Shown: positions 6,597 through 48,185 of the stretch, one piece after another
Layout of the letters: each line of letters begins with the position of its first letter
Numbering within the stretch: position 1 is the first letter of the stretch
From: Schmidtea nova
Taxonomy: Eukaryota
Direction: 5' to 3'
Assembly (NCBI GenBank): GCA_044892505.1
Contig: CM097883.1
Location: 114,142,001 to 114,206,000 of the forward strand
DNA length: 64,000 bases
Notes under the pieces: model-generated
The model's input: only the letters and a program-made list of their open reading frames with translations
Database searches by the model: none
What the model was told of the DNA's origin: nothing
Made by a program: the position numbers and the translations under genes

Positions 6597-7501
6597 TTCA
6601 CTGACGTTTCTCGCCTATAATACACGTGAGTGTGACGCGTCCAGGGTTATTATTATTCATCTTTTAAAAATTTTTGGCCTTAGTCATTTAAAAATGGCTT
6701 TCAGGTAATTTTATTTATTAGGATAACTTTTAAGGTTTTTATTTTGATCTCATAATTATATGAGATCAATATACAAGCTTTTAAAGGTTGTCTATTTTCA
6801 ACAAATTTATTTTTATTTAATTTCTAAACACTCAAAGGTAAGTAAAAATTCATTTTTAACTAAAATTTATATATTAATTACATTAATCTCCAAAGATTTC
6901 AGTTTTTTGAAAACATTTGTAAAAAAATCGACGAATACGTATGAAAATAATTTTTAAATCTTTAAAGTCATCCTTATTTAATTTGTCTTCAACAGTATTT
7001 TTCATAAAACAAAATCTGTCTTGAAAAGACATTGAGGAGAAGCCATTTGATCGGTCTTTCGTAAACTGCATTTGATTTTGCCAACTTCACTTTCAATTGG
7101 GTTAAGAAAAGGGTAATATTTTCTGAAATTCTGTGAAAATAAAAATTTATTATAACTTAAATTATATAACTTACGGTGATATTTCATCATTTTCACGAAA
7201 ACTCAAGTTAAATTCCTCAAATTCATTTAAAAGAATTTTATCGGTCATTAAAATTTTCAATATTTCTGATGATCAAAATTTTGTGTAAGACTATTGAATG
7301 AAATAATAACGCATTTGAAAGTTTACATCTGTTTTTTTTCTATGTTTTGTGTTTGCGTGTGATTATGTTGTTTTCTATCTCTTTTTAACGACATAATAAA
7401 TGAGACGATTGAGTAAAACAGAAATGAATAAGGTACATGTAGGTGTGTATTTTTCTATGGCATAAGCTTACTGATTATTATAGGTGAGACGTTTCAGTGA
7501 A
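6597..7501 (-). mobile_element. IS630/Tc1-family DNA transposon relic
   Basis: Imperfect ~20-bp inverted ends (ttcactgacgtttctcgccta / taggtgagacgtttcagtgaa); YYPFLNPIESEVGKIK resembles the YSPxLNPIE transposase motif. Confidence 0.45.
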
Positions 7502-10504: not shown

Positions 10505-13191
10505 TGTTGGGTCCACCATTTGGTCAACATTTAATGTATAAATAATAATAATAAGAAAACAAATAGGAATGAAGAGAATATTAATGTAATTGAGAGAAAT
10601 TCCATTAAAAGGAGTTAAAAGTAATGAAAAGATATAAATGATATTGCGAAATCAAAAGAAATAAAATTGAAAATGTTAAAAAGTAATAAGAAAACGATAT
10701 TTAATTATAATAGAATAACAAGAAATTGAAATAAATAAGTAATCAAGAAAAAAGAATTAATAAAATTACAGTTAATTCAAACAAGAAAATGAAATTTATT
10801 ATGTTTAATAAAATCGATATTATTTTTAGAAAATTTATTATTTTGGAATTTCTGATGATCAGCTTCACGCTGATTGGTTAAGATACTGATCTGATCAGTA
10901 TAAATACTGATGCAGATTCAGATGATTTTAATGTTATGTTTTGATCTAGTTAGATTTTTTGCTAAAAATTTGCTATTTGAATTTTCATTTTTGAAAATCT
11001 TGTGCGATTCTAGAACTTTGTTGAAGGTATGGATTATTGAATTTTTATTGTTTATAACTTTTTAAGCTATCATGATTTTTCTGTTATCATTATTAATTAA
11101 ATAAACTTTTTATGAATATGTTTTGAATTATGATTTGTTTTGAGTTCCTTCCACTGTGTAATCGGTGGAAGGAGGCAACGTTATCAAATTGAGTTATATT
11201 ATTATTTATTTTGAGTTCCTTCCACTGTGTAAACGGTGAAAGGAGGCAAATTGAAGTTATTTATATAATGCATTTATGTAGTCATATATTATTCAAGTGG
11301 GCTCCTGTCCATCGTGAAATCGATGGAAGGAGGCAGACTGTGCCGAGTAGATAACTGCTCCGTACAGTTAGGCCGTCCGACTGGTATCAAGTGCCACTAG
11401 GAGAGTAGGATTATAGTAACCATATTCTTAACAACGTATCGCTGAGCAGTATAGCCAGTTCGATTTTATTATGATAATTGTTTTATTTTTGTGAATTAAA
11501 TTTCACCTTTGTCAGAAAAGTGTTATCCTGATATTCCGAGATCGTCACATCTGGGGTTGTTGCGTAAAGTGGCCAGCGTCACCCTCCAAATTTTGAATGC
11601 CATTTAAAATGTAAAATGAAATATTACAACTTAGAGTCATTAACCAAGAATTCATGTGGTCATTGATCTACCACACAAATAAAACACAATCAATAAGAAA
11701 GTTGATCTGATGCTCAACACAAACTAAATAACACTGAAATTAATCTACTAGACTGATCCCTGTATATAGGGCAGTAATTTCGTAAAATCTTTGAATTTAA
11801 ATTGATATCCTGATTGCTGTACATAGCACAGACATGAATTAATAAAGTTTCGAATGAATCTATCTGATCGCTGTACATAGCGACAGTGTTGAAATTATAG
11901 CATGTATATTATTTCACTTCCTGAGTTGTAACGTAATAATAAATTAAATCACAAAGAAATGGTCGTAGAAATCATGAAAGTTAACAGACTCATTCAAATC
12001 AAACCAAATTTATATTAATGAACCATATTGATTTATAGAAAATGTCAATCAGCTCAATAACTTTACAATCCGAATTAGACAAGGCTTGGCGAATTATTCG
12101 CAGCCTTGAGAAGAAAATCACTCGAAAATCAGAGAAAATGAAAGAAGCAGAGACAACAATCTCACAATTACGAACAAATTGGTTTAGTCCAGACCAAATG
12201 AAGGCTCAGCTCATAAAGAACCAACGCTCTCAGCGAGCGAATGATGAATTAAGAACCGAGCTCGACGCCACAAAGATAAAATTGAGGAAATGTTTGAAGG
12301 CCGTGACCACATCATTTATTGATCGAGAACTAAAACAACTCATACGACCGATCACTTACCAGCACTGGTCGGAAGAAAAGTCCAAATGTACCAAAGGAAC
12401 CAACACAGAAGAACCATCTCAGGTTCAGGAAATAAAGATGCAAATTGCACCAAAAAATGCAGCAATTTCCGAAAACAAGAAAAAGAAGAAGAATAAGATG
12501 GGCGCAAGGCAACGCCGCTGGAAGAAACAAGTAATGCAACAACTGATTCAGCATACGAAAGAGTTTCCAGAAATCGATTTAACTACGGATTTTGCAGTGG
12601 CTGATGAGGATTTTCTCAAATATTTTGAATAAGATTATCGAACTTAAATTTCGTGTTATTCAGTTGTGTACAAAATTTTAGTTTTATTATATTTTTGTTT
12701 TGTGATTATTTTATTATAAAGTATTTGAAATAACGTATTTATTAAAAATTTAAAATTAATCAAATGCAAATTATAAATTGACAAAAGTGTTAACACAATT
12801 CAATAAAGGATAAACATTAGGAATATATTAAAGTAAAGATATATTTGTAATTACTCAGATTATCTGTTGATATGGTGAAGAAGGGGGCAGAAGGAAAAAA
12901 CTAAAATGAAAGATAATGAATGCGGATAAATTAAAGTGAAAGTGAAGCGTAAGTCCTTCTATCGGCAGCAGACGAACCCGTGAACATAAATGGGGAGTAG
13001 TTTTAGCAATAGAGCTCACCTGCCCATCATTGTTCAAACACCTTGCATATTTCCAACTCGATTATTCCAGGGAAATAGTCGAGGGTGCTCGTGTGTCACG
13101 TAAACATTTTATGTTTGGTCTTGGATGGAGGCATCCCTAGAGCGTTTATTTATTTTCTACTTTTGTTTTAACCCATCCAATACGCCCAACA
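10505..13191 (+). mobile_element. Solo LTR A (2.7 kb) of a giant-retroelement-related family
   Basis: Starts TGTTGGG, ends CCCAACA, flanked by 4-bp TSD ATAG (10501-10504 and 13192-13195); TATA-like tataaata near 10897; 3' block homologous to LTR B and the giant element LTR. Confidence 0.9.
12042..12632 (+). CDS. 196-aa coiled-coil protein with basic (NLS-like) patch, encoded inside solo LTR A
   Basis: Uninterrupted ORF; heptad-rich N-half; KKKKKNKMGARQRRWKK; TAG acceptor 3 nt before ATG. Confidence 0.65.
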   Translation: MSISSITLQSELDKAWRIIRSLEKKITRKSEKMKEAETTISQLRTNWFSPDQMKAQLIKNQRSQRANDELRTELDATKIKLRKCLKAVTTSFIDRELKQLIRPITYQHWSEEKSKCTKGTNTEEPSQVQEIKMQIAPKNAAISENKKKKKNKMGARQRRWKKQVMQQLIQHTKEFPEIDLTTDFAVADEDFLKYFE

Positions 13192-16345: not shown

Positions 16346-16459
16346 AAGACTTTTTAAGATTCAAATTATATTTATTATACAATGATTAGATATTAAAACA
16401 AAATATTAAAACGATGATTAACACGATTATTGTTAATCATCATTGACAATATTATGATA
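16346..16459 (-). repeat. 3' LTR (17 bp truncated) of the gypsy element
   Basis: Identical to 20191-20304. Confidence 0.9.
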
Positions 16460-16479
16460 TCCTTTCATCAGCAGCACCC

Positions 16480-19400
16480 ACATCTATGTTTCGATCGATG
16501 TCTCCCTTTGCGTCTAATGTCGGATTCGGCTGGTATTTTCTCTTGTGTAAGTTGTGCGTCTTTGAATTCCTGGATCTGCCGGCGGTCTGAGATTTGGTTA
16601 TTGCTAACTAACGTCACATTGTCGTTCTGACTCTCGATGGTGATGTATGAACTGTTGTTGCCATTAGTCATGATAAATTCGCCCTCTTTTGGTTCCACGT
16701 CCTCACTGGCTTTGTACCAGATGTCCTGGCTTTGTTGAAATTTAGATATTATCGGAGCTCTAGGCTCTCGCCCGAAAATAATCTCTGCGGGTGATTTTCC
16801 CCTCGATGTCGATGAAATTCTGTGGTGGAATAGGATTTTCTGTAGGAAGGTATTGAAATCACAATGTGTCCGAAGCTCGTTCGATCCTTTGAGAGCTTTC
16901 TTGACAGTTTGTACAGCTCTTTCTGCTGATCCGTTTCATCTAGGGAAGTATGCTGGCGATTCTTGTTTCATTGCTCCTTGGCTGTTGATCCACGCGTTTA
17001 GCTCATGCGAAGTGAATTCCTGGGCATAATCCGAGACGAGGTATTCCGGGACTCCAAACCTGGCGAAAACAGTTAGTAAACACATGATCACTGACTTACT
17101 CGTTTTATCGGATGTCTTGAAGGCTTCAATCCATCCCGAACCAGCGTCTACAATAATGAGCACGTCGCCCACCTCTTTGATGTGGGCCCAATCCATATGT
17201 ACTCTTTGGAATGGTTTCGCTCCTGGCCATTTGTGAATGCTCTTCTCTGGGCGATGATGTAGTTTCTTGCAAATTGCGCATGACCTAATGAAGTTGTCGA
17301 TGTCTCCGTGGATTCCAGGCCACCAAGATGATGCATTTAGCCGGTAAAATGTTGATTGTAGACCAGAATGTGTCTCATTGTGTGCTACATCAATGCATTT
17401 CTTCCTTAGTTTTGGTGGAATGAATAGACGTGACCCGTGGTAAAGCAGTCCATCTTCAACTGTTAGTCAGTCTGATATTTTCTTGAATGACCAATTGCCT
17501 TTCTTGATGCGACGCATAATATCTCTGGCCAACTCGTTTAGCGATGTTTCCAATCTGACCTCTAAGGCATTTAATAAGCCCTCGTTAAACTGGACCGTGA
17601 AAACACTCAATGTCTTCTTGGTTTTGATTTCCTCGTTTACTTCCTTTTCATCGATGAATTTTAGTCTTGATAGTGCATCTGCATGCAGGATCTGCTTTCC
17701 CATAACATAGTATATTTCATAATCGTACTGCATCAACAGCATGGCCCACCTTGAGATTCGATTGGATGTTCGCCTTGGAATCGGTGATTCGCTACCGAAT
17801 AGGGATTGGAGTGGTTGGTGGTTGTATTCACCTTGAATTTCCTCCCTAATAAGAAGTGTTGTAGTCTAGATATAGACCATACTATGGCTAAAGCCTCTCT
17901 CTCTATGTTAGAGTAATTTATTTCGGCAGCCGAAAGTGTTCTGGAAATGTAGATCACAGGATGGCTATCTTGGGTTAGGACAGCTGCTACGGCGTGTTTA
18001 GATGCATCAGTCGTCAATGTGGCTTCCTTTTCGAGGCTGTAGTGTTGCACAACTGGATATGTTGAAATTTCTTGTTTTAGTGCTTTAAACTGATTCGAGC
18101 ATTCCTTGTTCCAATCGAACTTTAAATCTTTTTTTCTCAATTCGTTGATTACTTTTGTTTTGTCTGAAAAATTTGGAATTAACCTACCAAAGTAATTAAT
18201 TAACCCGATGAAAGATTCTACTTCCTCCTTACATGTTGGTTCTTTTATATTGTTTATTATGCTGACGAGACTTTTATCAGGTGTGATACCCTTTGACGAT
18301 ATTTCGAAACCCAAGAAGGAAACACTATCGGTAAGTTCAATAGTCTTTGCTTGGTTGATTGTAACTTTTTTCTCTTTAAGGCGCAATTTTACCGTTTGCA
18401 GTCTATTCCTTAGTGATTTTTCATTCTCGGCATATATCAGTACGTCGTCTTGGTAGATTATTATTCCTTTGATATCTTTAAGTATTTGCTCCATTGTCCT
18501 TTGAAAGATTGCAGAGGCGTTCTTCATACCCATCTGTAATCTATTTACAGTAAACATACCTTTTGTCGTATTTATGAACGATATCTCTTTTGCTTCATCG
18601 TCTAATTCTATCTGCCAATATGCCGATTTGAGATCGAGCTTTATGAATTTGTTGGCATTCTTTAGTTTTTAGAAAATTGTTTCGACGTTCGGAATGGGGT
18701 ATGCATCGGTCTTTATCTTTTTATTGATATGCACTTTGAAGTCAGCGCATAATCTGAGGTCGCCATTGCTCTTTTATACCCAAACCACGGGCGAAGAATT
18801 CAGTACGGGTTTGGTGCACGGAGAGATTACTCCTAATCGCTGTAACCTTATTAGTTCATCGTTGACCTTGTTTTCTAAAGCTAATGATATTGGCCTAGCC
18901 TTACAGAACACGGGCTTCGCATCGTCGATTAAATCCATAGAGGCTTTTATACCTTTGATTGCTAATAACACTTGAGATTCTGTTGTCTTCGTGATTTGAC
19001 ACTGTAAGATTCCGTGTCGTGTCTGCTGCAGTATATCCATTCCTATTAGTCCGAAGTCCTTCATAGATTGAATGACTGTGATTGTTACTGGAAGCACTTG
19101 CTTTTCCCATTCCACAGTTGTCAGAAACGAGCCGTAGCATTGCATGATATGCCCATCGTAGGCTTCAAGCTTTCTTATTGTTTTATCAAGCTTCGGTCTT
19201 CCCATGTCTTCCCACATCTTGGATGATATGATTGATACAGATGCGCCGGTATCTTTTTGCATTATCACTATCGTTGTACCTAGGAGGACAGAGTTAATGT
19301 CACTTGTAATATTATTTGAAGTGAACTGGTTGATGTATTGCGTGTCACTTTCATCGGCTGACGATGTCTGATCTGCGAATGTTCCAAGTTTCGACTTTGT

Positions 19401-20173
19401 CAAAGATCTGCAAGCTTTCGCAAAATGATTCATTCTGTCACAATTCGTACACTTCTTTCCATTTGCAGGGCATTTCTTTAGCTCGTGCATTCGGTCACAG
19501 TAATGACACCTTTGATTTCCTTTCTCTTCGAATTTCCTTGATGTTCCAAGGTTTGATCTCTTCTTTTTAGTGAAATTGATTTCATCGGTCGTAGAGGTGA
19601 TTGAAGGTTTTGTTCCATGCTGGAGGGATATGAACATCGATATCTCCTCATATGTTTGCATTTGTGCGAGGATCTCGTTGCATGTTGGAGTCCCAACACT
19701 CATTTGCAACAAAATCTTTTCCTTAGCATTGATGTCAGATATTCCTGATATCAATGCCATGAGGAGCATATCCTCATTTGGGTCAGTTGAGTCCTTCAAT
19801 TTCTTGAAGTCACAATATATAGCAGCCTTCTTAAGTCTGATATAGAAATATGCTAATTCCTCTTTCGGTTCCTGGTTAGCTGATAAAATCTTGCTCTCTC
19901 AGATATTACGACTTTGCTTTTCGGCTGTGTGTGGTTTAATAGCATGGCTTTGATCTCGCTGAACGTCATCTCCTCTAGCAATTTGGGAGAAGCCATATGT
20001 TGGATTTTCGTGAGTGCCTTCAGTCCACATACAGATAGGAAGTTGTCCATGACTTGTCTTGATTTGTCACTATCGACCCACTTATTGGCTCGACTCATCG
20101 CACCGAAAGCGGTTAACCATATTTCGACATTGATGTTGTCATCTAGGTTCAATTCTTGCAATTGTGACGCCAT
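16480..20173 (-). pseudogene. pol: gag-pol with stops and frameshifts
   Basis: Zn knuckles CHYCDRMH/CTNCDRMNH; protease KDTGASVS; RT YQDD; RNase H TDASKHAV, IEREALAI; integrase MDWAH, VSDYAQEF. Confidence 0.9.
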
Positions 20174-20304
20174 TGTTATAATGCACGCACAAGACTTTTT
20201 AAGATTCAAATTATATTTATTATACAATGATTAGATATTAAAACAAAATATTAAAACGATGATTAACACGATTATTGTTAATCATCATTGACAATATTAT
20301 GATA
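20174..20304 (-). repeat. 5' LTR (131 bp) of the gypsy element
   Basis: Minus strand tatcataat...cattataaca, directly followed by ATGGCGTCAC (PBS-like TGG overlapping the gag start). Confidence 0.85.
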
Positions 20305-20759: not shown

Positions 20760-21367
20760 AAGCATGAAGACATCGTAAAAATAAATTAAACACCGATAAT
20801 GGTAAAGAATTTTACAACAAGATATTTCAAGAATTTTTACAAGAAAATGAAATACAAATTTATTCTACCTTTAATCAACCAGATTAAAGAAGTCAAGGAC
20901 CATCTCATAATCCTGTTATAGAAAGATTTAATAGAACTTTGAAAAATTTAATGTTTAAAAAATTTACAGAAAATGGAAATAGAATATGGATTACAATATT
21001 ACCAGAAATACTAAATTTTTATATTAATAAAAAACATAGAACAATTATTTCGACACCACAAGAAGCTTCAAACAATCCGGAATTAATTAGACAAGTAATA
21101 AACGAAAATAATAATGAATATCAAGATTTACAAGAAAAACAAAAGTTTGATATTGGTGATCGAGTTAGAATTTTCAAATGGAAAAATAAATTTGAACCTG
21201 GGTTCACTTATGGTTGGTCCAAAGAAGTTTTTATAATTTATAAAGTTTTGAATAGTAAACTAATAACATACAAAATAAAAGATTTAAACGGAGAAGAAAT
21301 ATTGGGAAGATTTTATCAAAATGAATTACAAAAGACTTCTTTTAAATTAATAATCATCTATATTTAA
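20760..21367 (+). pseudogene. Polinton-type rve integrase (5' part in gap, internal stop)
   Basis: TDNGKEF, VIERFNRTLK, KFDIGDRVRI, WSKEVF, GRFYQNELQ. Confidence 0.85.
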
Positions 21368-21432
21368 AGCTTTTTTTAAAATTTCTCTATGATGTACATA
21401 ACTATATTTTGATGAATCATTTTCTTTTACTT

Positions 21433-21774
21433 TTATATGTACGACTCTAGGGGGTGAATTTTCATCATCAAGTATATATAGAACAAAACCAGATTCATAA
21501 AAGTAGCCGGTGTTTTTAGAATAACATTCATCAAAATAGATATATTCTTGATCCAAAATAAGTTTTTCTTTACAAAAATTAGTTTTTCCAAAATTAGTTT
21601 TTCATCGTTGATTTCTTTTATATCATCTTTGATTTCTTTTATATCATCTTTGGTTTCTTTTATATCATCTTTGATTTCTTTTATATCATCTTTGATTTCT
21701 TGATTTATATTTATATTCTCAAGGATTAAAAATTCATCAGAGATGAAGCTTCGACGATCACACTCAAATTCCAT
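21433..21774 (-). CDS. Small ORF with a 21-bp (IKEIKDD) tandem repeat
   Basis: About 5 copies of the heptad in the ORF track; probably frameshifted into 21347-21556. Confidence 0.4.
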   Translation of the reverse strand: MEFECDRRSFISDEFLILENININQEIKDDIKEIKDDIKETKDDIKEIKDDIKEINDEKLILEKLIFVKKNLFWIKNISILMNVILKTPATFMNLVLFYIYLMMKIHPLESYI

Positions 21775-22102
21775 CGTTATTATTATTTTTTAGAATAAAC
21801 ATTATATTTTCTCAGCGGAGCTGCGCTCTACTTGTACAAAACCGCTACCACTTTTATTTCGCACTGTAAGAGGAGCATTTAATGCTTCTAAAAACATTTT
21901 TGTGTGATCTGCAGAGCTAGGATTCTGTCCATCAATACTATTACCAATATTTGGGTTATATGGATCTAAAAATATTCCATTACATATATCGTCGGAGACG
22001 TGACTTCGCCCATTTTCAGCGGAGCTGCGCTCAAACTTCTTCTTCTTTATATTTTCAAATTCAAATTCAATAACCATTTTATAGAAATATTTATATATAA
22101 AA

Positions 22103-22617
22103 ATGAGTGTTAAACGCAGTTCCACTGAATTGGAAAATAAAATTCAAGATATTGTAAAAAATAATAAACCTAGAGCAATTATAGTTGATGACAAGAAATT
22201 ATACATTTCAAAAGAAAAAATACAACAATTAAAAGAATTACAACGGCAGAGCCTTGACAAAGGAACAAAATAAGAACATAAGAACAAAAGGAAGGAGGAA
22301 TTCTTCCATTGGTGACATTGCTGCTTTTGTTTTTTGCTGGAATAAGTGCTGCAGGTGCAACAACTGCTTCTATTGTTTCTTCAATAAAAGATGGAAAACA
22401 AGCTGCTTTTTTAGATGCACAAAAGGAAAAACTGACAAAAGGAAAAGGAATTTATTTAGATCAGCAGAACCGCCACTTTGTGGACCCATATCAAGGAAAA
22501 GCTATTACAAAATATTTAAAAAGTATTATTCCCAATAATCCTACTATTAAAAAATTAAACAAGAAAAATATTGAAATTGAAATTGAAATAGATGGTGATG
22601 GTAATAACATTTTTTGA
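22103..22617 (+). pseudogene. Gly/Ala-rich hydrophobic virion-core-like protein, frameshifted
   Basis: LVTLLLLFFAGISAAGATTASIVSSI plus GKGIYL and QGKAI possible protease sites, as in Polinton core/membrane proteins. Confidence 0.45.
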
Positions 22618-22632
22618 AAAATAAGTAATAAA

Positions 22633-23436
22633 ATGGATGACTGTGATTCACATAGTGACAACTTCGCCGATTTTATGCCTGTTTGGAAACTAGATGTTGT
22701 CAAATTTAATCACAATCCAATAATTCCAGAAAGTTTTAGAATGTTGATTGTTGGTCCATCTGGTAGTGGTAAAACAATACTACTTAAAAAAATATTACTA
22801 ACACCAGATTATCTAGATTATGATAATTTGATTATATTTTCAAAAACTATAACACAACCAGAAATGCAAATAATATTTCATGGTTTTAATAATAGTCTAA
22901 CAAAACAAGATTTAATTTATATTTTTAAAAATCAAAATACATTTCAAGATACATCAACCCCTGTAGGCGTGACTTTGTCCACAAAAATAATTTGTGAATC
23001 TCTTGCAGAAATAAAAAACTCACCAAAACCAATAATTAATGTAACCATGTCAAACAAATATTATGAAATTCCTGCATGTGATACATTAAAAACAAATAAA
23101 AAGAATTTGATAGTTTTTGATGATTGTGTAAACGATAAAAATCAAGAAATAATGGAATCATATTTTACTCGTGGAATACATAATAAATGTAATTGTATAT
23201 ACTTGAGTCAAAATTATTATGATTTACCAAGTAGAAGTACACGAGGTAATTCTAAATTTTTTGTATTTTTTCAACTAAGTAAAAGAAATAAAGACAACAT
23301 TTATTCAGACTTGTTTTCAAACATTATTGAAAAGAATGATTTTAATTTATTAAATAGTCATCTTGCAACAAAACACAATTTTATAGCTTTGGATAAAGAG
23401 AAACATCAATTATTCAATAATTTTTATAAAATCTAA
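22633..23436 (+). CDS. Packaging ATPase (A32/FtsK-like)
   Basis: FRMLIVGPSGSGKT Walker A, LIVFDD Walker B, RG(I)H...IYLSQNY. Confidence 0.9.
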   Translation: MDDCDSHSDNFADFMPVWKLDVVKFNHNPIIPESFRMLIVGPSGSGKTILLKKILLTPDYLDYDNLIIFSKTITQPEMQIIFHGFNNSLTKQDLIYIFKNQNTFQDTSTPVGVTLSTKIICESLAEIKNSPKPIINVTMSNKYYEIPACDTLKTNKKNLIVFDDCVNDKNQEIMESYFTRGIHNKCNCIYLSQNYYDLPSRSTRGNSKFFVFFQLSKRNKDNIYSDLFSNIIEKNDFNLLNSHLATKHNFIALDKEKHQLFNNFYKI

Positions 23437-23748
23437 AATTGAAGAATACTTGAAACTCAACATGTTTACTAGAGATGAAAGTTGTTTATTGGTATAACCA
23501 GCACTTTGTGCATTTTCAAGTTGAACTTGAAAATGCACAAAGTGCTGGTTATACCAATAAACAACTTTCATCTCTAGTAAACATGTTGAGTTTCAAGTAT
23601 TCTTCAATTTTAGATTTTAGTTCTGAAAAGTCTGAATTCGAAGCAAGATTTCCAAAATATAACAGAAGAAAATAACAAACTTACACTTGGTATAGATTCT
23701 CTTTTACACAAGATTACAATTACTCCTGGTACATATGAATTACCTGCC

Positions 23749-24354
23749 TTGTTCAAAACAATTGAAAAAACAATAGAAAAAACAAAAACTCAACCAGTTC
23801 CATTACACTCTAAGGAACTGTGTGCGTCAGACCCGGGGCTTTACCCATCATTCGATAAATCTCCAGTAAAATTTGAATTTGATATTCCTACAGCAAAAGT
23901 AAAAATGAATATAATGGATAATTATAAAATTCAATTTGGAACAGCTGAAGAAAAACAACACCCACAAAGTGGAAGCACTCAGCGGAACTGCGCTCACCTC
24001 GGACAAGTACTTGGTTTTGATAATACTACAAGATACAGAGGAGAAGTTGTTGGTGAAAATTATGTAAATATAAGTAATATTACTTCAGTCAATTTATCTT
24101 GTGATATTGTAGAAGGTTCTTATTATAATGGAAAAAGAACCAATTATTTGTATATTTTTCCATATGGAACTGTTGGTCATGGTTACAGAATTGTTCAATA
24201 TAATACAACTCCAATATATTTACCAATCACCATCAAGACAATAAGTAGTATTACTTTTAGAATACAAGATCAAAATGAAAAGTTGATAAATTTTAATAAT
24301 GAAAATATTTTTTTTTCTTGTCATCTTAGGCAAGTTGTAAATGGGGGTAATTAA
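23749..24354 (+). CDS. Minor capsid/penton-like protein (C-terminal part; N-terminal fragments from ~23440)
   Basis: ITSVNLSCDIVEGSYYNGK...PIYLPI...ISSITFRIQDQNEKLINFNNE...CHLR pattern. Confidence 0.65.
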   Translation: MFKTIEKTIEKTKTQPVPLHSKELCASDPGLYPSFDKSPVKFEFDIPTAKVKMNIMDNYKIQFGTAEEKQHPQSGSTQRNCAHLGQVLGFDNTTRYRGEVVGENYVNISNITSVNLSCDIVEGSYYNGKRTNYLYIFPYGTVGHGYRIVQYNTTPIYLPITIKTISSITFRIQDQNEKLINFNNENIFFSCHLRQVVNGGN

Positions 24355-24773
24355 TAAATTTATAGAAAAATATGGAACAAGTACAACAACAAATTTTGAT
24401 TTGAAAAGAATTTGTAGAGATTTACAAGTGCAAGTTGCAATAATAATGTCTGATGAAATAAAATACTACTCGCAAAAACCAAATTTAATTATTAATTTAC
24501 AAAATACAAATCAAAAAGGAAGTCATTGGGTATTGTTTTCAAACAAACACAAGGTTTATTTTGATTCTTTTGGAATTGCTCCTATTAAAGGTATTGGAGA
24601 TTTTATTTCGGGCACATTTTTTATACAATACAATTCAAATACAACCAAATAATACAAAAATATGTGGGCAATTGTGTTGTTTTGTGCTTGATCAACTAGA
24701 ACGGCAGAGCCGCAGCTCCGCTGAACGGCAGAGCCTCCGATTTGAAGAAATAATACTAAAATTATTAAATTAA
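24341..24773 (+). pseudogene. Adenain-like cysteine maturation protease, frameshifted
   Basis: IINL...GSHWV, YFDSFG in one frame; QIQ...ICGQLC in the next. Confidence 0.85.
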
Positions 24774-24774
24774 A

Positions 24775-25780
24775 ATGAGTATTGTTATGGCTGTTGATCG
24801 TGGTGGATCAATTCCATCTATTAATACTGATGATGTAATGTTGAAATCTGAAAATAGATTTGTAAACGAAAGTGGTGATTTTAAGAAGGGGAATTTAAAC
24901 ATGAATGGTAACAAAATTATTGGTGTTGATGAACCAACAAATGATAATCAAGTTGTAAATAAAAAATATGTAGATTATTTTGTAAAATGTTAAAAAAAGA
25001 AATAAATGTTTTGTTGACAGATGTTCCTTTATTATTTACACAGAATAGAAAATTAGATGAAAAGATGCAACTATTAAAACAAGATTATAAAAAACAAAAA
25101 GAAGAATCCAACAAGAAAATAAATACACTAGAACAAGAAAATAAAAAACTAAATAATACAACCAAGATATGTAAGGAATTAACCGAAAGAGTTTCTCAAG
25201 AATTGGGATCATTACGCGATCAAGTAAAAATGTTGAAAGATGAGCGCAGCTCCACTGATAAGGAAAATTTAAAGTTGAAATTTATAACTCGAGAAGAATA
25301 CAAAAATGAAGAAAAAAGAAGTGTAAACATGAAAATTTTAAATGATTCTATAAATAAAAAATATATTAATAGTGAAATTTATAAATTTAAAGAAACAATG
25401 TATGCAATAACAAATGAAATGATAAAATCATTCAATACAAGATTTCTAAGAATAGAATCACATAGTACACACATTAGTAATAATCATGATATTAGAAAGA
25501 GAAGTGCAGAATTGAAAGAAAATCATAATTTATTACCTAGCACATTTACACACACATTAAATCTTTAGATCCAATATCTCTACGAGATGCGGGATGGTCA
25601 TTTCATGTTGTAGTAAAGATTATTCAACCACACTATATTGTATTTAATAATGATAATGGTGTTTTAACATTTTTTTCAAAAGATCCTTCTAAAGAAGCAA
25701 CAGGTGCCAAGATTGGTGATGTTATTATATGTGGGTTGGTATCAATAGGTGGCGATGTATATTTTGATGGGAAAAAATAG
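24775..25780 (+). pseudogene. Fibre-like/coiled-coil virion protein, fragmented
   Basis: SGD...GNLNMNGNKIIGVDEPTNDNQVVNKKYVD fibre-type repeat followed by coiled coil. Confidence 0.5.
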
Positions 25781-26329
25781 ATAAAAAGTTTCATTCTATT
25801 AATATTAGTAAGATTCGTTTTTCTACTGGTATAGTAGAATATATTGATTTTTTATTTTATGATAAAGTAGTTGATGATCAAGAAGTTCAAAATACTTTGA
25901 AAAATATATATGGTCACATGTTGACACCAAGAGATCATGTTTTGGCAGTAATAGAAAACAAAGTATATTATTATTAAATTATTATAAAAGATGGGTGCAG
26001 CTGTAAACAAAAAATATGGAATTATTAGAACAAGAAATTAAAAAAGGATGAATTTGATGATAAAACAAAAATAATGATTAAATCATTAAATTCACATGTT
26101 GAAACCTCGAGACCATGAATTTTTTCTACAAAAATGGAAGAGATAAAAGAAGATTTTATTCATCCAGAAGTCCACATGCGTTACCCAAATTTGGAAAAAA
26201 TATATCAACAGAGCTTTTTAGAAAATACAACCAAGTTTGAGCGCAGCTCCGCTGAAAATAATAACAACAAAAGGCAAAGCCCTGGTTACACAAACAAAAA
26301 AAAGTGCACCAGTGTTGGAAAATAATAAC

Positions 26330-26828
26330 CACAAATCTACCAACACCTTGTATGAAAAATATAAATAAAGTAAAATTAATGAATTCTTGGGTGAAAAGAA
26401 ACAACTTGAAGATTTGTTATCACACTATAAAAAATAATACATAGGTGGACTAGCGCAGATTCATCAATTAAAATGGCTGGTATTGGTTTAGGATTTCTTC
26501 TTACTTGTTGTTCTATTGTTATTGCTCCATTGAGTAGTGTTGGTTTAGAAACTGCGGCTTTTATTACAAGTTCTGTTAGTGGTGGATAAGTGCTCTTGAT
26601 TTGTTTTTGACAGAAGCAGTTTCTATTGGTTTGACTAGTAAAAAGAAACAGATCTATCGTGAAGTATGTCTGAAATTGGAACTTGGTATAAACAAATTAT
26701 ATCTATATAAAAACAAAGCCATAAGTGATGATAATTTGACAGATGGAGAAATTGAAACTAGTAAAATTATTATACAAGAAATTATTGCCGAGGTAAATAA
26801 AATAAAGTACTCGAAAGAAGTAAATTAA
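26330..26828 (+). pseudogene. Hydrophobic Polinton-type ORF, disrupted
   Basis: AGIGLGFLLTCCSIVIAPLSSVGLETAAFI followed by NKAISDDNLTDGEI. Confidence 0.4.
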
Positions 26829-26923
26829 GAAATAAAACTTGTTAGAAAACAATAAAACAAAATTTGAGTGACAAGATGAAACAAGATTTCAAATCAAAAT
26901 TGAAAAAATTAAATGAAATATAA

Positions 26924-29900
26924 TTATAAAATCAATGTCTGGGTTTTTTCATATGAAAAATTATAATAAATATCCAAATCAGTCAAGGTTGTATTTAATT
27001 TTTTATTTATTTCATTTAATTTTTTTATTACAACTATTTTATAATGTCCATGTTTTAATGTTGTTATACCATCAGACAAAATAAATCTTTTATCATCATA
27101 ATTTTCAAGAGCTTTTTTGTTTTGCTCAATCAAATATATATCATGTTCTTTGTTCTGAATCCCGTGGACAACAACATTGAATGGATCATTATTGAACACT
27201 TCTCCAAGAGGATTATTTGATATACATTTTTCATATTCATGGTAATATATTTGTTTTTCTAGAGTACTCTTTTGAATTCCCTTGTTCTTTTTTCTCTTTT
27301 CCTTCTTCTGTTTTGTAGGAATATTGTTTTGCTCTAACAAATATCGCTTCTTTTATAGGATCTTTGGGTGAATCATCCTTATATGAAAACAAGACTCCAC
27401 TAACATTAATTGTTGGAATTTTTTCCAATTATTGTTTTATATTATTTGAATGAATTACAAGAAAGTTGGAATCAGTATCCATATAAGGTAGTGATATCCT
27501 TTCTCCAAAATTTGGTAATAATTGTTGATAGTACATTTCATACATTTGAAGTTTTGACAACTCCAATATTGCAAAACCTAAATAAATTGGTTTATTATAC
27601 GTCTTTTGGTAATTTCCAATTTCAAGAGCCATTAATTCATCAGAAAATTGTTGTCCACCTTTAAATGTTGGTCTTGACATTATTTTTTGTGCTAGTTCCC
27701 AATTCTTTGAGTTGTATAATTTTATATTTCTACGCTTATCAAGATTTTTCATAGTCTTTCCAAATACTGCATTATTCAACAATTTGAAAATCTCGTATCC
27801 CAAATTTTCCCCTTTATTTTTTGCAATATTTCTTTTTAAAATATTATCTTTGATATAATTCATCATCCAAGGAGATTGTTTAAAAGAAATTATATTATGA
27901 ACATGTTTTAAGATCATTCCTTGTTGAATATAAAACTGTAAATTTCTATAATGAACCAGATATTTTCTTTTATCTGTTGATCACAAATTAGTTTTTCTGT
28001 AGGGGGTTTGTCTTGTTGTTTTATTTTTTGTTGAAATTCAGATAATTCATGATATTCTATTCTTCTTCTTGTTGGACAAAATGGAAAGTTTTTTGTCTTG
28101 TCGTGTAATTCTTGTGGATAATCAAGATCTACTTCTAAGTATTTCCTCTGTTGGTTCTTGCCATTTAAAATCTCCATATGGCATGTATTGTGTCATTATA
28201 CCAGAATATAATGCAGTTGCATCAATATAAAAGATGTGAGATTCCATATTCATGTGTTTAAATTCGGTATGTAAATTTAATAATATTTTACCACTTCTTT
28301 TTGCCTCTGCTTTTGCTTCTTCCAGAGTTTTTTTGTTAAAAGTATTAATTGTTCTTGATCCCATTACAGAAGATATACATGTTTAAATTATCTAATAAAT
28401 TTAGTGTTTGTTTCGATGTATATAGTAAAACTTGCCAAGCAAGTGATGGCCCAGAAACAAAATGAGCTGGATCAATTGAAAATGTTTTTCTAAATTTTTC
28501 AAAACAATCTGCTAAAATGTATACATCTGACCTGAGATACAAATCATTATAATCACCAAAAGTTTTACAATTAAACAAGTTCCACATTTTTAATGCTCTT
28601 TCATATTCTTGTTTTGATATATTACTTTGGTGTAAAATGGAAAAAAAGTCACCATGTGGTGGTAAATGTTTATTATTAAATTTTTCAAAAGAATCAACCC
28701 AATCATATGGAAATATTCCTTTTTCTCTACACAAGTCAAAATTTTCGGATTGTTTCCACTCAACAAGTTTTTGTTTTAAAATTACAAATTCATCATTTTG
28801 TAGGGCCTTTCCGGCATTATCTAAAGACATTCCTGGGGGAAAAAATCTTAATGAATCAATAAATTTTAAACATCCCCATTGAACAGAAATGTATCCTTCT
28901 TTTGTTTTTCCAATTATTTTGAAAGTATTTTTATCATTTTTGGCAAGTGCTTTAATATATACAAATGAACATAATTTGATCCATTTGAAATACTACTGGT
29001 ATTACTTTTGATCTTTGACATGACAAATTACAAGAATTGTGTACATAACCTCTAAACTTACCATTAAAATGATCATGATCAACAACTGGAGTTTCATCGT
29101 CTTTAATTTTTTCTTGACACATCCAACAAGTTGTTTCTGAATCAAGTGGTGGAACTGGATCAATTAATGGTTTATTTGTGTTATATCCCTGTGGTCCCTT
29201 TCCAACAATAGAATTGAATTTATTTTCCAAATCATTTACTGTTTTGACAAAATGTTACAAAGTATCCTCTGAAGATGTTCCTCTATAAAATGCCTCTGTT
29301 TCTATATTATTTTCTGAAATATATTGTGGATACAAATCTTTGCAATTGTTTGTAAACAATCCATAAACATTTATTCTAAGATTATTCAACTTTTCAAAAT
29401 CTGATACATGTCCTATTTTCATTGGAAATTCCAAATTACCAAAATTTAGTGTATTTAAAAATGGTTGATATTTTGAAATTCGGTTTGGATTCTTGTGGGG
29501 TGGGTGTAAATGTGCCAAAATAGAATATTCAAAACCTCTATTGTCCTCATTTTTAACATTTATCAAATAGTTTGATTTAAACCTTAGTGGAATATATGAT
29601 TTTCCATTTAATGGTTTTATTTTCCAACACTCGATTTGCAAATTTCCCATTGAATACAAAACTAAATCACTTGGATTTATTTCTTCTTGTAATCTTTCCA
29701 TATTATCTTCTAGTTGTGAAATTATTCTATCAACAACTACTCCTTTTTTTATTCTTTTATAAACATGTTGGTGGTTAGTTGTAATTTTTGATTTTAAACA
29801 ATTTTCTCCCGTATTATGTCTAGCATATCTAAGTTCAAGATTTACATTCCACTTCATAAATTTAAATCTTTTAACTGTTTTTGTAAGAAATCTTGTAATC

Positions 29901-30301
29901 TCTTTACGAAGTTCAAAAACGTATGATCTAATTGTTATGGGTACTTTTAATTGTCGCCCAATTTCTCCAGAAACATACAAATCACCAAAGTTTTTCTCTG
30001 GTTCTTGGTGATGATTTTCTAAATGTAAATCAAGTCCAATCTTTGTCGTAAATTTTTTACAAACATCACAATATATAAAAGTTGGAGTTTTTTTCTCTAC
30101 ACCTATACATATAGCCTCGTGTACTCTTATACCACTTTTTAAATATCTAACTTTACATTTTCTACAGATTGTTGAGTTGGTATTATCCAATTGTTCAAAA
30201 TTTCTCAAATGATTTTTTGATTTTTTATGAGAAATGAATGCAGAATTTCTTGTAAATCTTTTGTTGCAAATTTCACAATAAAAGTTTGGAGTACTCGACA
30301 T
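26924..30301 (-). pseudogene. polB: Protein-primed family B DNA polymerase, multiply frameshifted, with N-terminal Zn fingers and an endonuclease-VII-like Zn domain
   Basis: GKSYIPL, INVKNED, DHDHFNGKFRG...CNL, FPYDW, YLRSDV, YIDATALY, KLLNNAVFGK, YMDTDS. Confidence 0.92.
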
Positions 30302-38008: not shown

Positions 38009-39578
38009 TGTTGGGCTGGGAGAATTGAAGTTTAAATTTTGTTTTAATACGCAAAATAAAATTAAAATAACACGGCAACACAAGAAAATTAAACTGGAAA
38101 ATTAAACTGGAAAATTGTATGAAAAATATAGGATAAACAGTAGTCATATGAACCGCTTTTCATAAGTCGGTCGAGTTAGGGAGAAACGATGAAAAGATGC
38201 ATATCAAAGGGGAGCACACAATTCGAGTGCAGGTCAAATTTACATACGAAAGACCGCATGAGAATTAAATGGGGGAAAATTATCAATAATAAAAAAACAT
38301 GATCAAAGAATAAAACTAGTATCGGAATAAAGATAATAATTTATTAAAATTATAGAAGAAATCCCCATTAAAATATCGTTTAAAATAACTGAGCTAGAAG
38401 GAAAAACCATAAAATAAATTAACTAATCAATAAATATACATAATTTAATAATATTAAAAAATAATAAATATTTTGAAATAAATAAAATAAATTATAAAAC
38501 AAATTTTACAAGAATAAATAAATTAAATTGAATTAAATTACCTTTGTTTTAACTAAATAATTTTATCATTAAACAAGGTTAACAATTAATGACTCCTACG
38601 TAAATTTTAGAAAAATGTTACTAAAAATAGTAACATAAAAAATTTGGAAAATATGTGCATACTGCCTCGCAGAAGTCAACGAGTGGGCGTACACGTATTG
38701 TCCGAGTGACTGGTGTTGGGGGTCGGTAAAGTGGTAGAAAATTCAACGCATACAAACACAAATTCTCTCACCTTAACAATTAGAGATAGGAAATTTGTGT
38801 TGCAATCCCGTATCGGCAGTAGACACACAGTCACTCAAAATAGTATAAATAGACGCTGAAAATGATAATTTTAACTCGTTTTACGCTGAATATTTTTTGA
38901 ACACGGAAGAATTTCAATTCTGCCAGCCAGCACCGGTCAGTAGTTTTTATATTCTATTGTGTGGTACATTAGTATCAAGTATGTTTTTATTTTATGTATT
39001 CTTTTAAAGTTTGTTGTAATTATTATGCTTTATTTGTTTTGCCTTGCCTTGCCTTGCCTTGCTCAATTTATTTGTCCCGATTAAACTGATTTTAAGAGAG
39101 GCTCGGTTGACTTACCAGTCCCGGTGACTCCGATGGTTAGGAGCTGTTTGGGCCGAATAATCGGTTCCTCCGGACCGTTGTATTAAACTAAATAGGACGG
39201 CGGTGGAAAGAGTACACTTTAGGAGTATTGATAAGATATTTTTGGAATAGATAGGTGTGGATCGTGGATGGCATAATGTGAGGATATCGTAGATCGAGAA
39301 TGGATAAATTTAAATGACCGTTGGAAATAGAGAGTAGCTAGATGCGTAAGACCTTCTATCGGCAGCAAGAACCCGAAAGAGAGAATACAGTGAGGAGTAG
39401 TTTCGGCAACGGAGCTCATCTGCTTACTGCATTCTCGCCACCCTGTACATTACAAACCTAGCTTACCGAGTAGTAATTATAGGTACATGGGTGTGGTAGA
39501 TAACATTTATGTTGCGGCATGGGTTGTGTCAATCCCTAAAATAATAAAAGTTTTTAACAACATCCATATTTCCCAACA
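38009..39578 (+). mobile_element. Solo LTR B (1.57 kb), same superfamily as LTR A
   Basis: TGTTGGG...CCCAACA with 4-bp TSD GTTT (38005-38008 and 39579-39582); shares the 3' conserved block with LTR A. Confidence 0.9.
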
Positions 39579-42081: not shown

Positions 42082-45000
42082 TGTTGGGCCAAAACGCAAT
42101 TTGTTTTAATAAAGCGATAACCCCATAGGTAGAGAACGCGCAAGATTCCATTTTTAACCTTAGCTTCCATTAAAAAAATCCAACAATTAAGTGGAAAACA
42201 CCAAAAGGTGAAGATGAATCAAAACACAGCAACCGGTAGAATGCGCGCTAACTGCGAATTTATAAATATTTTCACTGAAATCTCGAGAAAAATTAAAAGC
42301 AGAATGTTTGGAAGTTAGAATAGGCAAAAAACCCATGGAAAGTGCCCATAAAGAACAGAAATTTGTCATAAAATCTTCAGTGCAGAAAAATTAACACAAT
42401 TCTAGAGGAAAATTGTGAATTTATCACAAAATTTCACATTTAACAATAGAAAGAATTAATATGGATCGAATATCATAAATTAAATCAAATCGAACAAATT
42501 TCGATTCAAACATAAAAATTTTTAATTAAAATAAATTATTTATAGTTTATAAAAAATTATTATACAAAAATATGGAATTAATTTTCGGAAAATCATTAGA
42601 ATTAATTTAGAAAAAATTAAGAGAAAATTCTAGAACAATTTGTTTTATTGCACTACCGGAGATAGAGAAAATTTGATGGTATATATACCGCCATCAAAAT
42701 GGCAGATTTCAGATTTTGTGGAAAAAATTTTTTTGTTTTGCTAGCTAAGAGAATTTGTGAGAAGTTTTCCGAAAATTTTTATTGCTAACCTAATTAAAGA
42801 GAATTTGTACCATTTGCCTCAGAAATTTAGAATTGAAGATATTGTGGAAAGGATTCAATTTATTGGAAAATCGGAATTGGTCAAAATTTAGTTCCCGGAG
42901 CACGAACCTTTTTAGTAGAAAACAAAATTTCTTCCTGGAGTTTGAAATGTTAGGTTTATTTTATTTTTGTTTTATTTTAAACTGATTCGAGGGGTATGGG
43001 ATCGTCGGTAATCATGCCTGTCGATCATCCCATTCCTCACGTTCGTATTATTTAAAAATGTATTATTTTTGTTATTTTATATAATGCAATTATTTTATTT
43101 TGATATTATTAAATATTAAAAATTTATTTTATTCAGTTTGATTTTGAAAATATTTTTGTTTATTATACTCACAAGTTCCCAAAACACCTAAAATTACTAT
43201 GAGAATTGTCGAAATAAACTTATGAAATTAAATAATTTTTTTTTTATCTCCCATATCTTCTGACGATCCGTCCAGCCTTGGTTGTGCGGATCTGTTAGTA
43301 GCCTGGGTGGATCGTTGTCTGATTGGTAATCGGCCAGCCCATATTTCCACTTTAAGGTGAGGCTCATACATCCAAATTCTCGTCATCCCAACTGGGGAAT
43401 CGTGGTTTGGCCAAGAGCAAGGATTTGTTATATTAATGATTTTTATTATAATAGAGTATCATATTTTCTATTATCTACATAAGCAATTTCGTAATACAAC
43501 ATAAAAATATTTCTAACTCATGTCTTGAAATCTAAAATAGGAAATATTATTGATTAAAAAATCGACTCGTACTCGCCTTCACCTTCGCACTCTCAATGAC
43601 AATCATCTTATGAGAAAATGCAAGAAAAATGGATACTAATGATGGAAAGAAAATCGCTCGAAATAATGCTCAAGTCTGGAATAATGCTCATGAAGTGAAA
43701 TGAATTGTGAAACAAGTATTGATTTGATCTGAATTAAAACTCATTATGGTCTAAATAAGTTTTCCTGTGAATCTTGTTTTTCGAGAGCCTGAAATTCCTG
43801 AGCGAAGTGTCCCGAAAAATTCGCGCGCACTTTGTTTAGGAAGCTCATGCTCAACAAAACCGAAATTTACTTCACTTGATGTTAAAAATATTCGTCGAAA
43901 AAGGTGTAACTTATTTTATTTTATTTTTTATTTTTATTTAGTATATAAATCTCTTTAGATTAAATGCATATTTAGATCTCGAAATTCATGGATAAAATAT
44001 TTTTATCAAGAATAAAAATTTGCTTTTTATTGTACTGCAAAACTTTTAAAATGAAAAATTTGCTTTTTATTGTACTGTAAAAATTTTAAAATGAAAAAAT
44101 TGTAAATCAAAAATTTTCCTAATATTGTTAATATATAAAAGATTTTATCAGTTCATAAAATTCCCGAGAATTTGAAAATCAAAAATTGTACTAAACTCCA
44201 TAAAAATTATAAATTGAAATTTTAGTATTAATAAATTTTTATCTTTTTGTAAAAATTTGGATTCGGAATTTTATAAAAAAGGAAAATTTAAGATTAATAT
44301 AGTTATCTCTTAAAATATAAAAATTTAATTTCACAAACCTATATTATCAAAATTATAAATTTTATCATCATTTAATAAAATTGGAACATTAGAAATCCAA
44401 AAAAGTAATATAAAAATTAGTATTATTATTTTAATGATTATTATTATTTTAATTTAAAAATATTTTATATAGTGTATTTAAATTATAATATAACCCCCCC
44501 CCACGATATCTTAAAAATATTAATACATCACTCATTGCAAGAAATCACACCCTTTTCACTCAATAGCATCACCCATACTAATATACAAGCAACATACATA
44601 TAAAATACAATATACACACATACACCGTATCGTTCAATAACATTCAACAATCACATGCATACAAGCAAACCATACAGAAAATCTACACCGTTAGGTTAGT
44701 TAGCATCATATATCCATAGCTCATTCAGGCACTCGCTCAATCACATCCACATCGTTTATTTTATCCAACCGACCAATGAACACACCAACACATGCATTTA
44801 TAACAATAGGAAGTCCACCACCGAACTATAAAAGAAAAAAAAACATAAACGTGATTCACCACAATAGGTATTTCCCACAAATCTATAACAAAATATAGCA
44901 GCCTCATTCACCTTCAGATCATCACCTTAGAAATTATTTTCATTCATCTGTGAACATACCTCGCTGACAATATAACTTCCAATACCACTACCCAACAGTT

Positions 45001-46399
45001 GACAATGATTTATATATACCCCACTTCATATTTTAAAAAAAATTTATAATAATAAAAAGACATTCAAGACAAAAAATTTATTGATAATAAACATCATTCA
45101 CAACAGTTCCAGAAAACAGTCTGGTAGGGATTTCCCATAAGGAAGTTGGTTCCGTTGAGGAGTAAAACAACATCCAATTTGGGTACGATTTCTCGAAAAT
45201 ATCCAATCGTACTATACGTCTGGCAGATATGAGAACGAAACAAAAAAATTAATTCCACAGAGCAACTGCCGCTTGCGACGATTGATAGATTTTATTTTTG
45301 TGGTTCCTCATCGGAAAGCTGCTGGAGAATTTTTATTTAAGCCCTCGAATTTAAAGGGAAAAGATATTGGTCTATCATAGACTTGGCATTGAACGACGAA
45401 CGTGGTGAATCTAGTGGCCTCTGAATCAAGTGATAATAAAGTAAAAATATATTGATAAATCTAAATTACCATTTTCGACGATGATAAATTTTCCAATTGA
45501 GTAGAATTTCATAATAGGAATTTGAGAGAAATTAAATAAATAAATGATAATTCAAATTGTTATCATTTACAATTGAGGGGAAATAAATTTTTCTTCTGGT
45601 TCAAACAAGAAGAATATTTCCGTTTGGTAAATTGCACCTAATTTTGTTCCAAATAAATTTAAAAATGCAAAAAATTTTTTAAATTAAATTCAAGAATTAA
45701 ATAATTTCAAAAGACCGAAATCTGATGGTTATAAATTATAAGCAAAAGTTTTACTAAATCAATTTCGTTACTAAGGCCTCAGCAAAATTTTAAAATCAAA
45801 ATATTGAAATTTTAATAAATATTTTATTATCAATTTAAAGCAAGATAGACAATAGGATTTGAATATAAATAAAGTTTACATAAATTTTAAATATAAAAAA
45901 CATAACAATTTAAGGAAATTGCGATAATGATAAAAATTTGGGTCTAAATAAGAGCAATTTGTATATTCCCAAATATATGCATTTTCTGAAGGAATAATTG
46001 ATCACCTAATTGAGTTGCGATAATATTTTCGAATGCATGCTTGCGAATAGAATAAAAGTGCTCAAATAAATTAATTGATTAATAAAGGAATCACGATTCA
46101 GCGAAAATATTCAAATAAAAATCTCGTAATAAACCTATACAGTGATAGAACAGATAAATTAAGGGGGACAAAAATGGGCAAGAAACCTTCTATCGGTAGC
46201 CCTTGGACCCAGGAGATATTCGGTCAATCATAGTTTCGTATTGACGACGCTCACTGATTGCGAATACCCACCCACTTGTTACAGTACCAACGTTACATAG
46301 TGACGGGTAACAAGGTGGTAATTTCAATGTTTTATGTGTTGAGTTGTTGATGAGAGCCATAGAAACGTCAAGGTCATATTGACGGTCAACAACCCACCA
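42082..46399 (+). repeat. Putative 5' LTR (~4.3 kb) of the giant element
   Basis: Starts TGTTGGG with similarity to the LTR B start; carries the A/B 3' block at 46150-46360; ends CCCACCA 10 nt before the PBS. Confidence 0.6.
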
Positions 46400-46409
46400 T
46401 ATAAAAATT

Positions 46410-46427
46410 TGGGGGCTCAGCCGGGAT
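46410..46427 (+). promoter_or_regulatory. Primer-binding site, tRNA-Pro type
   Basis: TGGGGGCTCAGCCGGGAT, 16/18 identical to the classical tRNA-Pro PBS TGGGGGCTCGTCCGGGAT. Confidence 0.85.
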
Positions 46428-47819: not shown

Positions 47820-48185
47820 ATGGAGAAAATTATAAAAATATAAAAATATAAAAAATATAAAAATACAAAAATATATGTATAAAAATGGCTGAATATTCTG
47901 TTAGTTAAAAATATAAAAATATAAAAATATAAAAATACAAAAATATATGTATAAAAATGGCTGAATATTCTGTTAGTTAAAAATATAAAAATATAAAAAT
48001 ACAAAAATATATGTATAAAAATGGCTGAATATTCTGTTAGTTAAAAATATAAAAATATAAAAATATAAAAATACAAAAATATATGTATAAAAATGGCTGA
48101 ATATTCTGTTAGTTAAAAATATAAAAATATAAAAATATAAAAATACAAAAATATATGTATAAAAATGGCTGAATATTCTGTTAGT
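47820..48185. repeat. 64-72-bp tandem repeat (5 copies) in the element leader
   Basis: tggctgaatattctgttagt at 47886, 47958, 48022, 48094, 48166. Confidence 0.9.

Follow-up and report, generated by a model that had tools for sequence, protein, structure and literature searches.

The final 230–290 bases of the long terminal repeats (LTRs) of eight diverged families of giant retrotransposons in Schmidtea nova share a module with a common predicted fold, which we read as a U5 leader predicted to dock and activate the primer tRNA-Pro; we give this reading a probability of about 50%. The module lies at the 3′ end of the LTR, beside the primer-binding site (PBS), is conserved across all eight families, carries compensatory changes in two of its stem-loops, H2 and H3, and has a pairing bias that marks the + strand. 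We infer all of the tRNA contacts that this reading places beyond the PBS.

The module was studied from a window of 64,000 nucleotides (GCA_044892505.1, CM097883.1:114,142,001–114,206,000, forward strand). A sequence-only reading of the window had noted a structurally conserved, RNA-like element at three places. These stretches form the U5 (3′) ends of three LTRs, two of them solo and the third the 5′ LTR of a Burro-like element, and all of the motifs and stems quoted for them were found where that reading had placed them.

Module copies and neighbouring features in the window

Each of the three copies forms the 3′ end of an LTR that has TG...CA termini and a target duplication. Solo LTR A (10505–13191, + strand) has TGTTGGG...CCCAACA ends and a 4-bp target duplication, and its module occupies 12943–13191 (+ strand). 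In this copy, the H1 hairpin with its T-loop-like loop lies at 12955–12965 and GAACCCG at 12974–12980. H2, which combines a UA/UCAC internal loop with a GNRA hairpin, spans about 12982–13036; H3 contains an 8x1 loop (13049–13056) and an apical AGGGA; and the terminal stem, H4, starts at 13108, with CCCUAG at 13135–13140. Solo LTR A also holds a 197-codon open frame (12039–12632) with no Pfam match. Solo LTR B (38009–39578, + strand) has TGTTGGG...CA ends and a 4-bp target duplication, and carries its module at 39340–39578 (+ strand). Copy B shows some decay, and the partner of CCCUA is missing from its H3 loop.

The third copy belongs to element C, whose 5′ LTR (42082–46399, + strand) is 4,318 bp long, with the target duplication AACG. 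The 3′ LTR lies just past the window end (L239:339–4656), and the two LTRs are 99.98% identical, with one difference in 4,318 bases. Copy C of the module (46174–46409, + strand) includes the 10-nt spacer after the LTR (46400–46409), which is predicted to pair with the 5′ arm of H4 at 46331–46336. Its H3 apical loop has only 3 nt, and this copy is without the loop-loop pairing. The PBS occupies 46410–46427 (+ strand), with 18 of 18 bases complementary to the 3′ end of tRNA-Pro(UGG), and the internal region runs from 46428 to 64000 (+ strand).

Element C measures approximately 26.6 kb (42082–64000 of the window plus L239:1–4656), and 378 of its internal bases are N. The ORFs of the element include RING, aspartyl protease with ankyrin, TRAF/MATH, and BIR with RING, plus further, unassigned ORFs; reverse transcriptase (RT) and integrase were looked for in the part of the interior that falls in the window, and none was found. 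Based on its near-identical LTRs and intact target duplication, together with the lack of RT and integrase, element C is likely a non-autonomous, recently mobilised element with protease, TRAF, BIR, RING, and ankyrin ORFs as cargo.

The window holds several other features. At 16346–20304 (− strand) lies an ordinary small Ty3/gypsy element whose repeats measure 114 bp and which carries protease, RT, RNase H, and integrase; it was examined for the module, which was absent. A hairpin at 6718–6790 scored 58.8 bits against mir-753 (cut-off 62) and matched bantam weakly. ORFs at 20888–30301 resemble, by eye, a Polinton-type integrase and packaging ATPase as well as pieces of a protein-primed DNA polymerase, and this stretch includes a perfect 96-bp inverted repeat at 23427–23619.

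Abundance and families

A core 15-mer of the module, CCTTCTATCGGYAGC, matched the window three times at up to two mismatches, against a chance mean of 0.03, and none of 100 shuffles reached this count. In the 1.25-Gb genome, the 15-mer had 12,027 exact matches and its reversed control had none; a variant pattern gave a further 1,753 matches, with 4 for its control. This single word is a practical marker for about 12,000 LTR ends. Two further words, which the sequence-only reading had included in the shared order, proved not to be general: only 14 of 146 distinct copies had GATAAATT within 70 nt upstream, and the AT-rich window contains it 11 times on its + strand; the donor-like GYAAG was found in 54 of the 146.

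Pattern searches, PBS-anchored loci, and one DNA search yielded eight groups, labelled A–H; more distant families may be missed by this combination. Family C was the most abundant among the families sampled, and paired modules 11–27 kb apart were seen in families other than C. The PBS pattern occurs 3,020 times in the genome. For a part of this set, sampled from the start of contig C1, the module preceded the PBS at all of the first 30 matches and then at 58 of 61 further ones; the three exceptions were LTRs truncated by other sequence. Pattern searches outside the genome gave 55 matches in metagenome contigs and one in a viral contig. None of these was accompanied by the rest of the module, and their best model score was 18.8 bits, compared with at least 60 in true copies; the 56 matches are chance occurrences. 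Some modules (L054/L148 and L145, by eye) are mosaics whose 5′ part belongs to one subfamily and whose terminal stem belongs to a second, a pattern that suggests template switching between co-packaged families.

Predicted fold and covariation

Four predicted stem-loops, H1–H4, are common to the eight families. Three single copies folded better than their shuffles, with z values of −3.4, −1.9, and −2.4. The covariation reported in the sequence-only reading held in larger alignments. Using 28 copies and no guide structure, RNAalifold predicted 16 pairs, 13 of which showed two-sided change, a count that includes kinship between copies. For the hand-drawn structure, whose paired-cell and two-sided-pair counts also include kinship and lean towards structure because it was drawn from the same sequences, two-sided change was present at 27 of 39 pairs and paired cells amounted to 83%, against 68% in column shuffles and 34–41% when the structure was slid; in a model-fitted alignment of 55 distinct rows, to which the same lean and the same kinship apply, paired cells amounted to 86.5%.

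In a strand-swap test on 26 representatives, the own partner of each strand was compared with all partners from other families. The own partner was best in 20 representatives for the outer stem of H2, in 21 for the lower stem of H3, and in 20 for its upper stem; these are the three stems with strong compensatory change. The inner stem of H2 followed with 15. For the outer H1 stem (10 of 26), H4 (5), and the loop-loop pairing (4), the test was weak, as their strands are alike between families or loosely cut. The loop-loop pairing was present in 22 of the 26, being missing from both C copies and two B copies, and it includes individual two-sided changes (AAGG/CCUU, AGAG/CUCU, and GGGU/ACCC). CCCUAG covaries with its internal partner in the H3 loop. 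Paired columns held 114 G-U combinations and 52 A-C combinations, an excess that favours the + strand as the RNA.

At the 3′ end of the module, an arm of H4 is predicted to pair over the LTR end into the spacer in all 11 of the 5′ LTR copies. In family C the spacer is longer, and the match between H4 and spacer is longer too. Since this pairing spans the LTR end, the complete fold would be found only in the leader of the genomic RNA. The sequence-only reading had proposed a functional RNA module in the LTRs, which the covariation backs; it had overlooked the PBS, the terminal stem, the loop-loop pairing, and a conserved 8-nt loop ending in CCAA.

Invariant bases and complementarity to the primer tRNA

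The invariant unpaired bases comprise UUCUANC in the loop of H1; GRACCCG, which forms a linker; the UA/UCAC internal loop, beside an invariant U-G pair; and the 8x1 loop with CCAA at its end. In the H1 loop, U1 and A5 were present in 146 of 146 copies, a figure biased by a copy search that allowed only two mismatches, and variation was found mainly at position 6, which one family-G copy lacks. In family E, A5 was kept in 98 of the 100 copies listed. At the level of sequence, this loop fits the U1–A5 T-loop pattern as given in PMC4810234.

Seven conserved blocks, from 42 representatives of the eight families, were compared with tRNA-Pro outside the PBS, using 1,000 dinucleotide shuffles of the tRNA. 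The complementarity of GRACCCG to the 5′ strand of the T-arm was matched or beaten by none of the 1,000. This word fell at one T-arm stretch in all seven families listed, with 7 bp in six of them and 6 bp in family C; position 7 is a mismatched A in 60 of 146 copies, mainly of family C. For CCCUAG, 19 of 1,000 shuffles did as well, and its pairing was mostly with the D-loop of tRNA-Pro. Two blocks ranked together in the top 2% in 9 of 1,000 shuffles. The remaining five blocks had no excess complementarity to tRNA-Pro (328 to 940 of 1,000 shuffles), and the score summed over blocks was not significant (86 of 300 shuffles). Specifically, CCAA paired with the tRNA-Pro anticodon no better than in 328 of 1,000 shuffles, a comparison of low power at 4 bp, and UCAC(C)UG matched the 5′ end of tRNA-Pro no better than shuffles.

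Specificity was evaluated with Pro(UGG), Pro(CGG), Arg(CCU), Arg(UCG), and Lys(UUU); a Pro(AGG) gene was absent among the 100 of 211 tRNA matches listed. The T-arm word is near-universal, so that GRACCCG scored −11.5 with Pro, −11.3 with Arg(CCU), and −10.9 with Lys(UUU), and the T-arm match was common to two of the three non-Pro tRNAs. The D-loop match of CCCUAG was Pro-specific among the five.

No contiguous internal partner of GRACCCG was found at one recurring place across 11 leaders. In families C, D, and E, its CCC could pair internally with a GGG word that lies upstream; in 26 of 26 representatives, the T-arm duplex exceeded even the strongest of the upstream internal duplexes. In the old family H, GAACCCG was kept in 11 of 16 copies, mostly without an upstream GGG (by eye).

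Primer-binding site and LTR-adjacent stretches

The PBS matches the 3′ end of a genomic tRNA-Pro(UGG) at 18 of 18 positions. All of the module families share this primer, so a joint switch of primer and motif could not show up. Among about 3,020 PBS in total, 66 otherwise exact copies were without T at position 18, of which 63 had A, 3 had C, and none had G. The tRNA-Pro(CGG) gene bears the base that matches the position-18 variant. The A at this position would fit occasional priming by tRNA-Pro(CGG), and junction indels may explain some of the cases. The genomic tRNA genes lie in long tandem arrays of one or two types (L031–L042, L242–L249, and L280–L309), with units of 308 bp for Pro-UGG and of 713 bp for Pro-CGG with Arg-CCU.

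The stretches before the 3′ LTR were examined in four families (L239:300–338, L234, L236, and L238). None had a polypurine tract upstream of the 3′ LTR, the longest purine run being 3–6 nt. Instead, this region holds a perfect hairpin that is conserved, together with a GGG(N)CCCC word 6–10 nt before the LTR. It is also complementary to the spacer plus PBS, a match that 0, 42, 2, and 3 of 1,000 shuffles equalled, and the two ends of the element mirror each other in spacer length. Genome cyclisation, a dimer palindrome, or unusual plus-strand priming is each a possible role for this stretch. Downstream of the PBS, its 3′ part is partly repeated at a distance of 60–140 nt in families A and E (L154, L260, and others), and a conserved GTCGGGACGACA word lies 200–700 nt downstream in 6 of 11 leaders.

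Proposed mechanism and alternative explanations

According to the docking and activation reading, the leader would fold into H1–H4, with H4 closing across the LTR end and spacer so that the PBS begins at the foot of the helix. Pairing at the PBS would open the acceptor and T stems of the tRNA, and the T-arm's 5′ strand (about nt 50–56), once released, would then pair with GRACCCG in the manner of a retroviral primer activation signal. CCCUAG may trade its partner in the H3 loop, a sequence that resembles the D-loop of tRNA-Pro, for the D-loop itself. Finally, the invariant loops of H1, H2, and H3 would likely dock mutually or bind Gag or RT, holding the complex. Copies in solo and 3′ LTRs would be passive carriers of the sequence. 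The adjacency of the PBS, the H4–spacer pairing, the covariation, and the T-arm match support this reading. The position of GRACCCG about 200 nt upstream of the PBS counts against it, the distance predicted in HTLV-1 being 10 nt. Also against it are the near-universal T-arm word, the five blocks without excess complementarity to the tRNA, the mismatch at position 7 of GRACCCG, the upstream GGG words of families C, D, and E, the covarying internal partner of CCCUAG, and the use of one primer by all families.

A bolder version of the same idea is unlikely. In it, the module would be a tRNA-capturing RNA, the retrotransposon counterpart of the T-box: GRACCCG would rebuild the T-stem, the H1 loop would serve as a surrogate T-loop that forms the elbow with the D-loop, the CCA-A of H3 would read the UGG anticodon, and the D-loop mimic in H3 would act as a switch, such that RNA alone selects the isoacceptor. 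The unpaired CCA-A does recall the specifier codon of a T-box. However, the match of CCAA to the anticodon was no better than chance, and Rfam gave no T-box match.

Among the alternatives to docking and activation, a packaging or dimerisation signal survives best and is possible, if doubtful. The invariant loops would be sites at which Gag or nucleocapsid selects genomic RNA, and the tRNA matches would be incidental. Internal loops and bulges with invariant bases are typical protein sites, and the invariant bases of the module lie in such places; moreover, most of the conserved blocks are without a tRNA match. The module is also intact in element C, which has no RT or integrase yet has near-identical LTRs and thus depends on cis signals. 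Against this, the core packaging signals of retroviruses lie mostly downstream of the PBS, a U5 signal would sit on spliced RNAs as well, and both the T-arm match and the end of H4 beside the PBS are left unexplained. The packaging and tRNA-docking readings are compatible, and of the functions listed in the sequence-only reading, packaging or initiation is the one that survives, whereas splicing and an SL-RNA role do not.

The invariance of the inner CC/GG pairs of H1, which show no variation and thus provide no covariation evidence, would also suit an element that acts through host factors in the export, stability, translation, or 3′-end control of a very long RNA, or a word, CCTTCTATCGG, that acts partly at the DNA level as a promoter. 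In families C and D, conservation declines steeply some 25 nt upstream of the core, as it might near a start site. We nevertheless consider this explanation improbable, since the outer H1 stem has two-sided changes between families (GGGC/GCCC and CCAC/GTGG) and the inner stem is extended in families E and H, both of which fit an RNA hairpin, and there is no conserved poly(A) word.

It is very unlikely that the LTR contains a ribozyme of a new kind, whether self-cleaving or capping, comparable to those of retrozymes or Penelope elements. T-loop-like loops and loop-loop pairings are common in ribozymes; the module has both, and its invariant unpaired bases are distributed among three stem-loops with the potential to dock. 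However, the module matched no Rfam family at any meaningful level, the loop-loop pairing is missing in family C, the most abundant sampled, and a cut in U5 would be expected to sever the template of strong-stop DNA and remove the cap. The Rfam 15 search, which covered the window and seven further loci, gave no module match above chance level. Hammerhead-like words near 46340–46385 in copy C were rejected as they lie inside stem H4 and are missing in other families. Group I introns, pistol, twister, and the IGR-IRES, compared by eye with consensus words, misfit in order or key words and had no tool match.

A splice donor or enhancer, or an SL-RNA-like module, is the least credible explanation and can be set aside: the donor-like GURAG word is present in 13 of 26 representatives but missing in families C, D, E, and H, neither AUG|GU nor, in the first 120 nt, the Sm word RAU4–6G was found in any of the 26, the UAGUU proposed as an Sm-like stretch is mostly predicted to be paired in H2, and flatworm SL RNAs require an AUG|GU donor and an Sm-like site, as stated in PMC12582326.

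Comparison with known systems

In retroviruses, the primer activation signal (PAS) pairs with the T-arm of the primer tRNA (PMC11181671 and PMC11251516), and in HTLV-1 its predicted distance from the PBS is that of 10 nt noted above (PMC11251516). The retroviral U5/PBS region, with the PAS, A-rich loop, and tRNA-like element of HIV-1, resembles the predicted module in three respects covered by passages of PMC11181671: U5 is structured and precedes a PBS of 18 nt, a short unpaired word complements the 5′ strand of the primer's T-arm, and the PBS stands at the foot of a stem. The module differs in that it is about 250 nt long, has four domains, and carries its PAS-like word about 200 nt from the PBS. 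In those passages, no counterpart is stated for its T-loop-like hairpin, its 8x1 loop, or its loop-loop pairing. In addition, anticodon pairing is unsupported in the module.

The leaders of other LTR retrotransposons offer a second comparison. From the portions available, Ty1 and Ty3 have extended contacts with the tRNA's T and D regions, a pseudoknot, and cyclisation (PMC3592414 and PMC5371799), with boxes 0, 1, and 2.1, a pseudoknot, and CYC5/CYC3 in Ty1 and a bipartite PBS in Ty3; Drosophila gypsy has 5′ and 3′ PBS, that is, a second PBS (PMC1635307). The module resembles these systems in its predicted extra T and D contacts, a pseudoknot near the PBS, and complementarity between 5′ and 3′ ends. 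In contrast to them, it is combined with a full 18-nt PBS for tRNA-Pro and has its extra sites upstream, within the LTR; the likeness is architectural.

Element C shares multi-kb LTRs and a cargo of protease, ankyrin, TRAF/MATH, and BIR with Burro/GYPSM1, as described in the Burro passages of PMC6431247. It differs in being without RT and integrase, and the likeness rests on LTRs and cargo. No account of a U5 structure, a PBS, or the 3′ junction is given there, and neither those passages nor the Burro passages of PMC8532177 mention the fold. With respect to the T-loop motif and T-box, as covered in PMC4810234, the 7-nt H1 loop has a sequence that would fit a U1–A5 closure, with a position 6 that is variable or deleted; it differs in having a pyrimidine at position 4, and no second, interdigitating T-loop was identified.

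A match to a described U5 element, which the sequence-only reading had named as grounds for refutation, holds by half, for the kind of element, known from retroviruses and Ty; the fold itself is absent from Rfam and undescribed in the literature searched, a point to which Repbase entries, or supplements to the primary Burro genome paper, may be relevant. Its architecture, depth of conservation, and specific tRNA predictions appear to be new. The fast divergence of LTRs usually precludes comparative work on their structure, but eight families in one genome provided a covariation-backed, multi-domain leader and a short list of invariant bases. The reading makes a clear prediction, pairing with the T-arm, that is testable with a 300-nt RNA and the tRNA. 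If true, giant planarian-type elements would gain, within the literature searched, their first defined cis-acting replication element, and primer activation signals would extend to this branch of Ty3/gypsy, as tRNA mimicry might.
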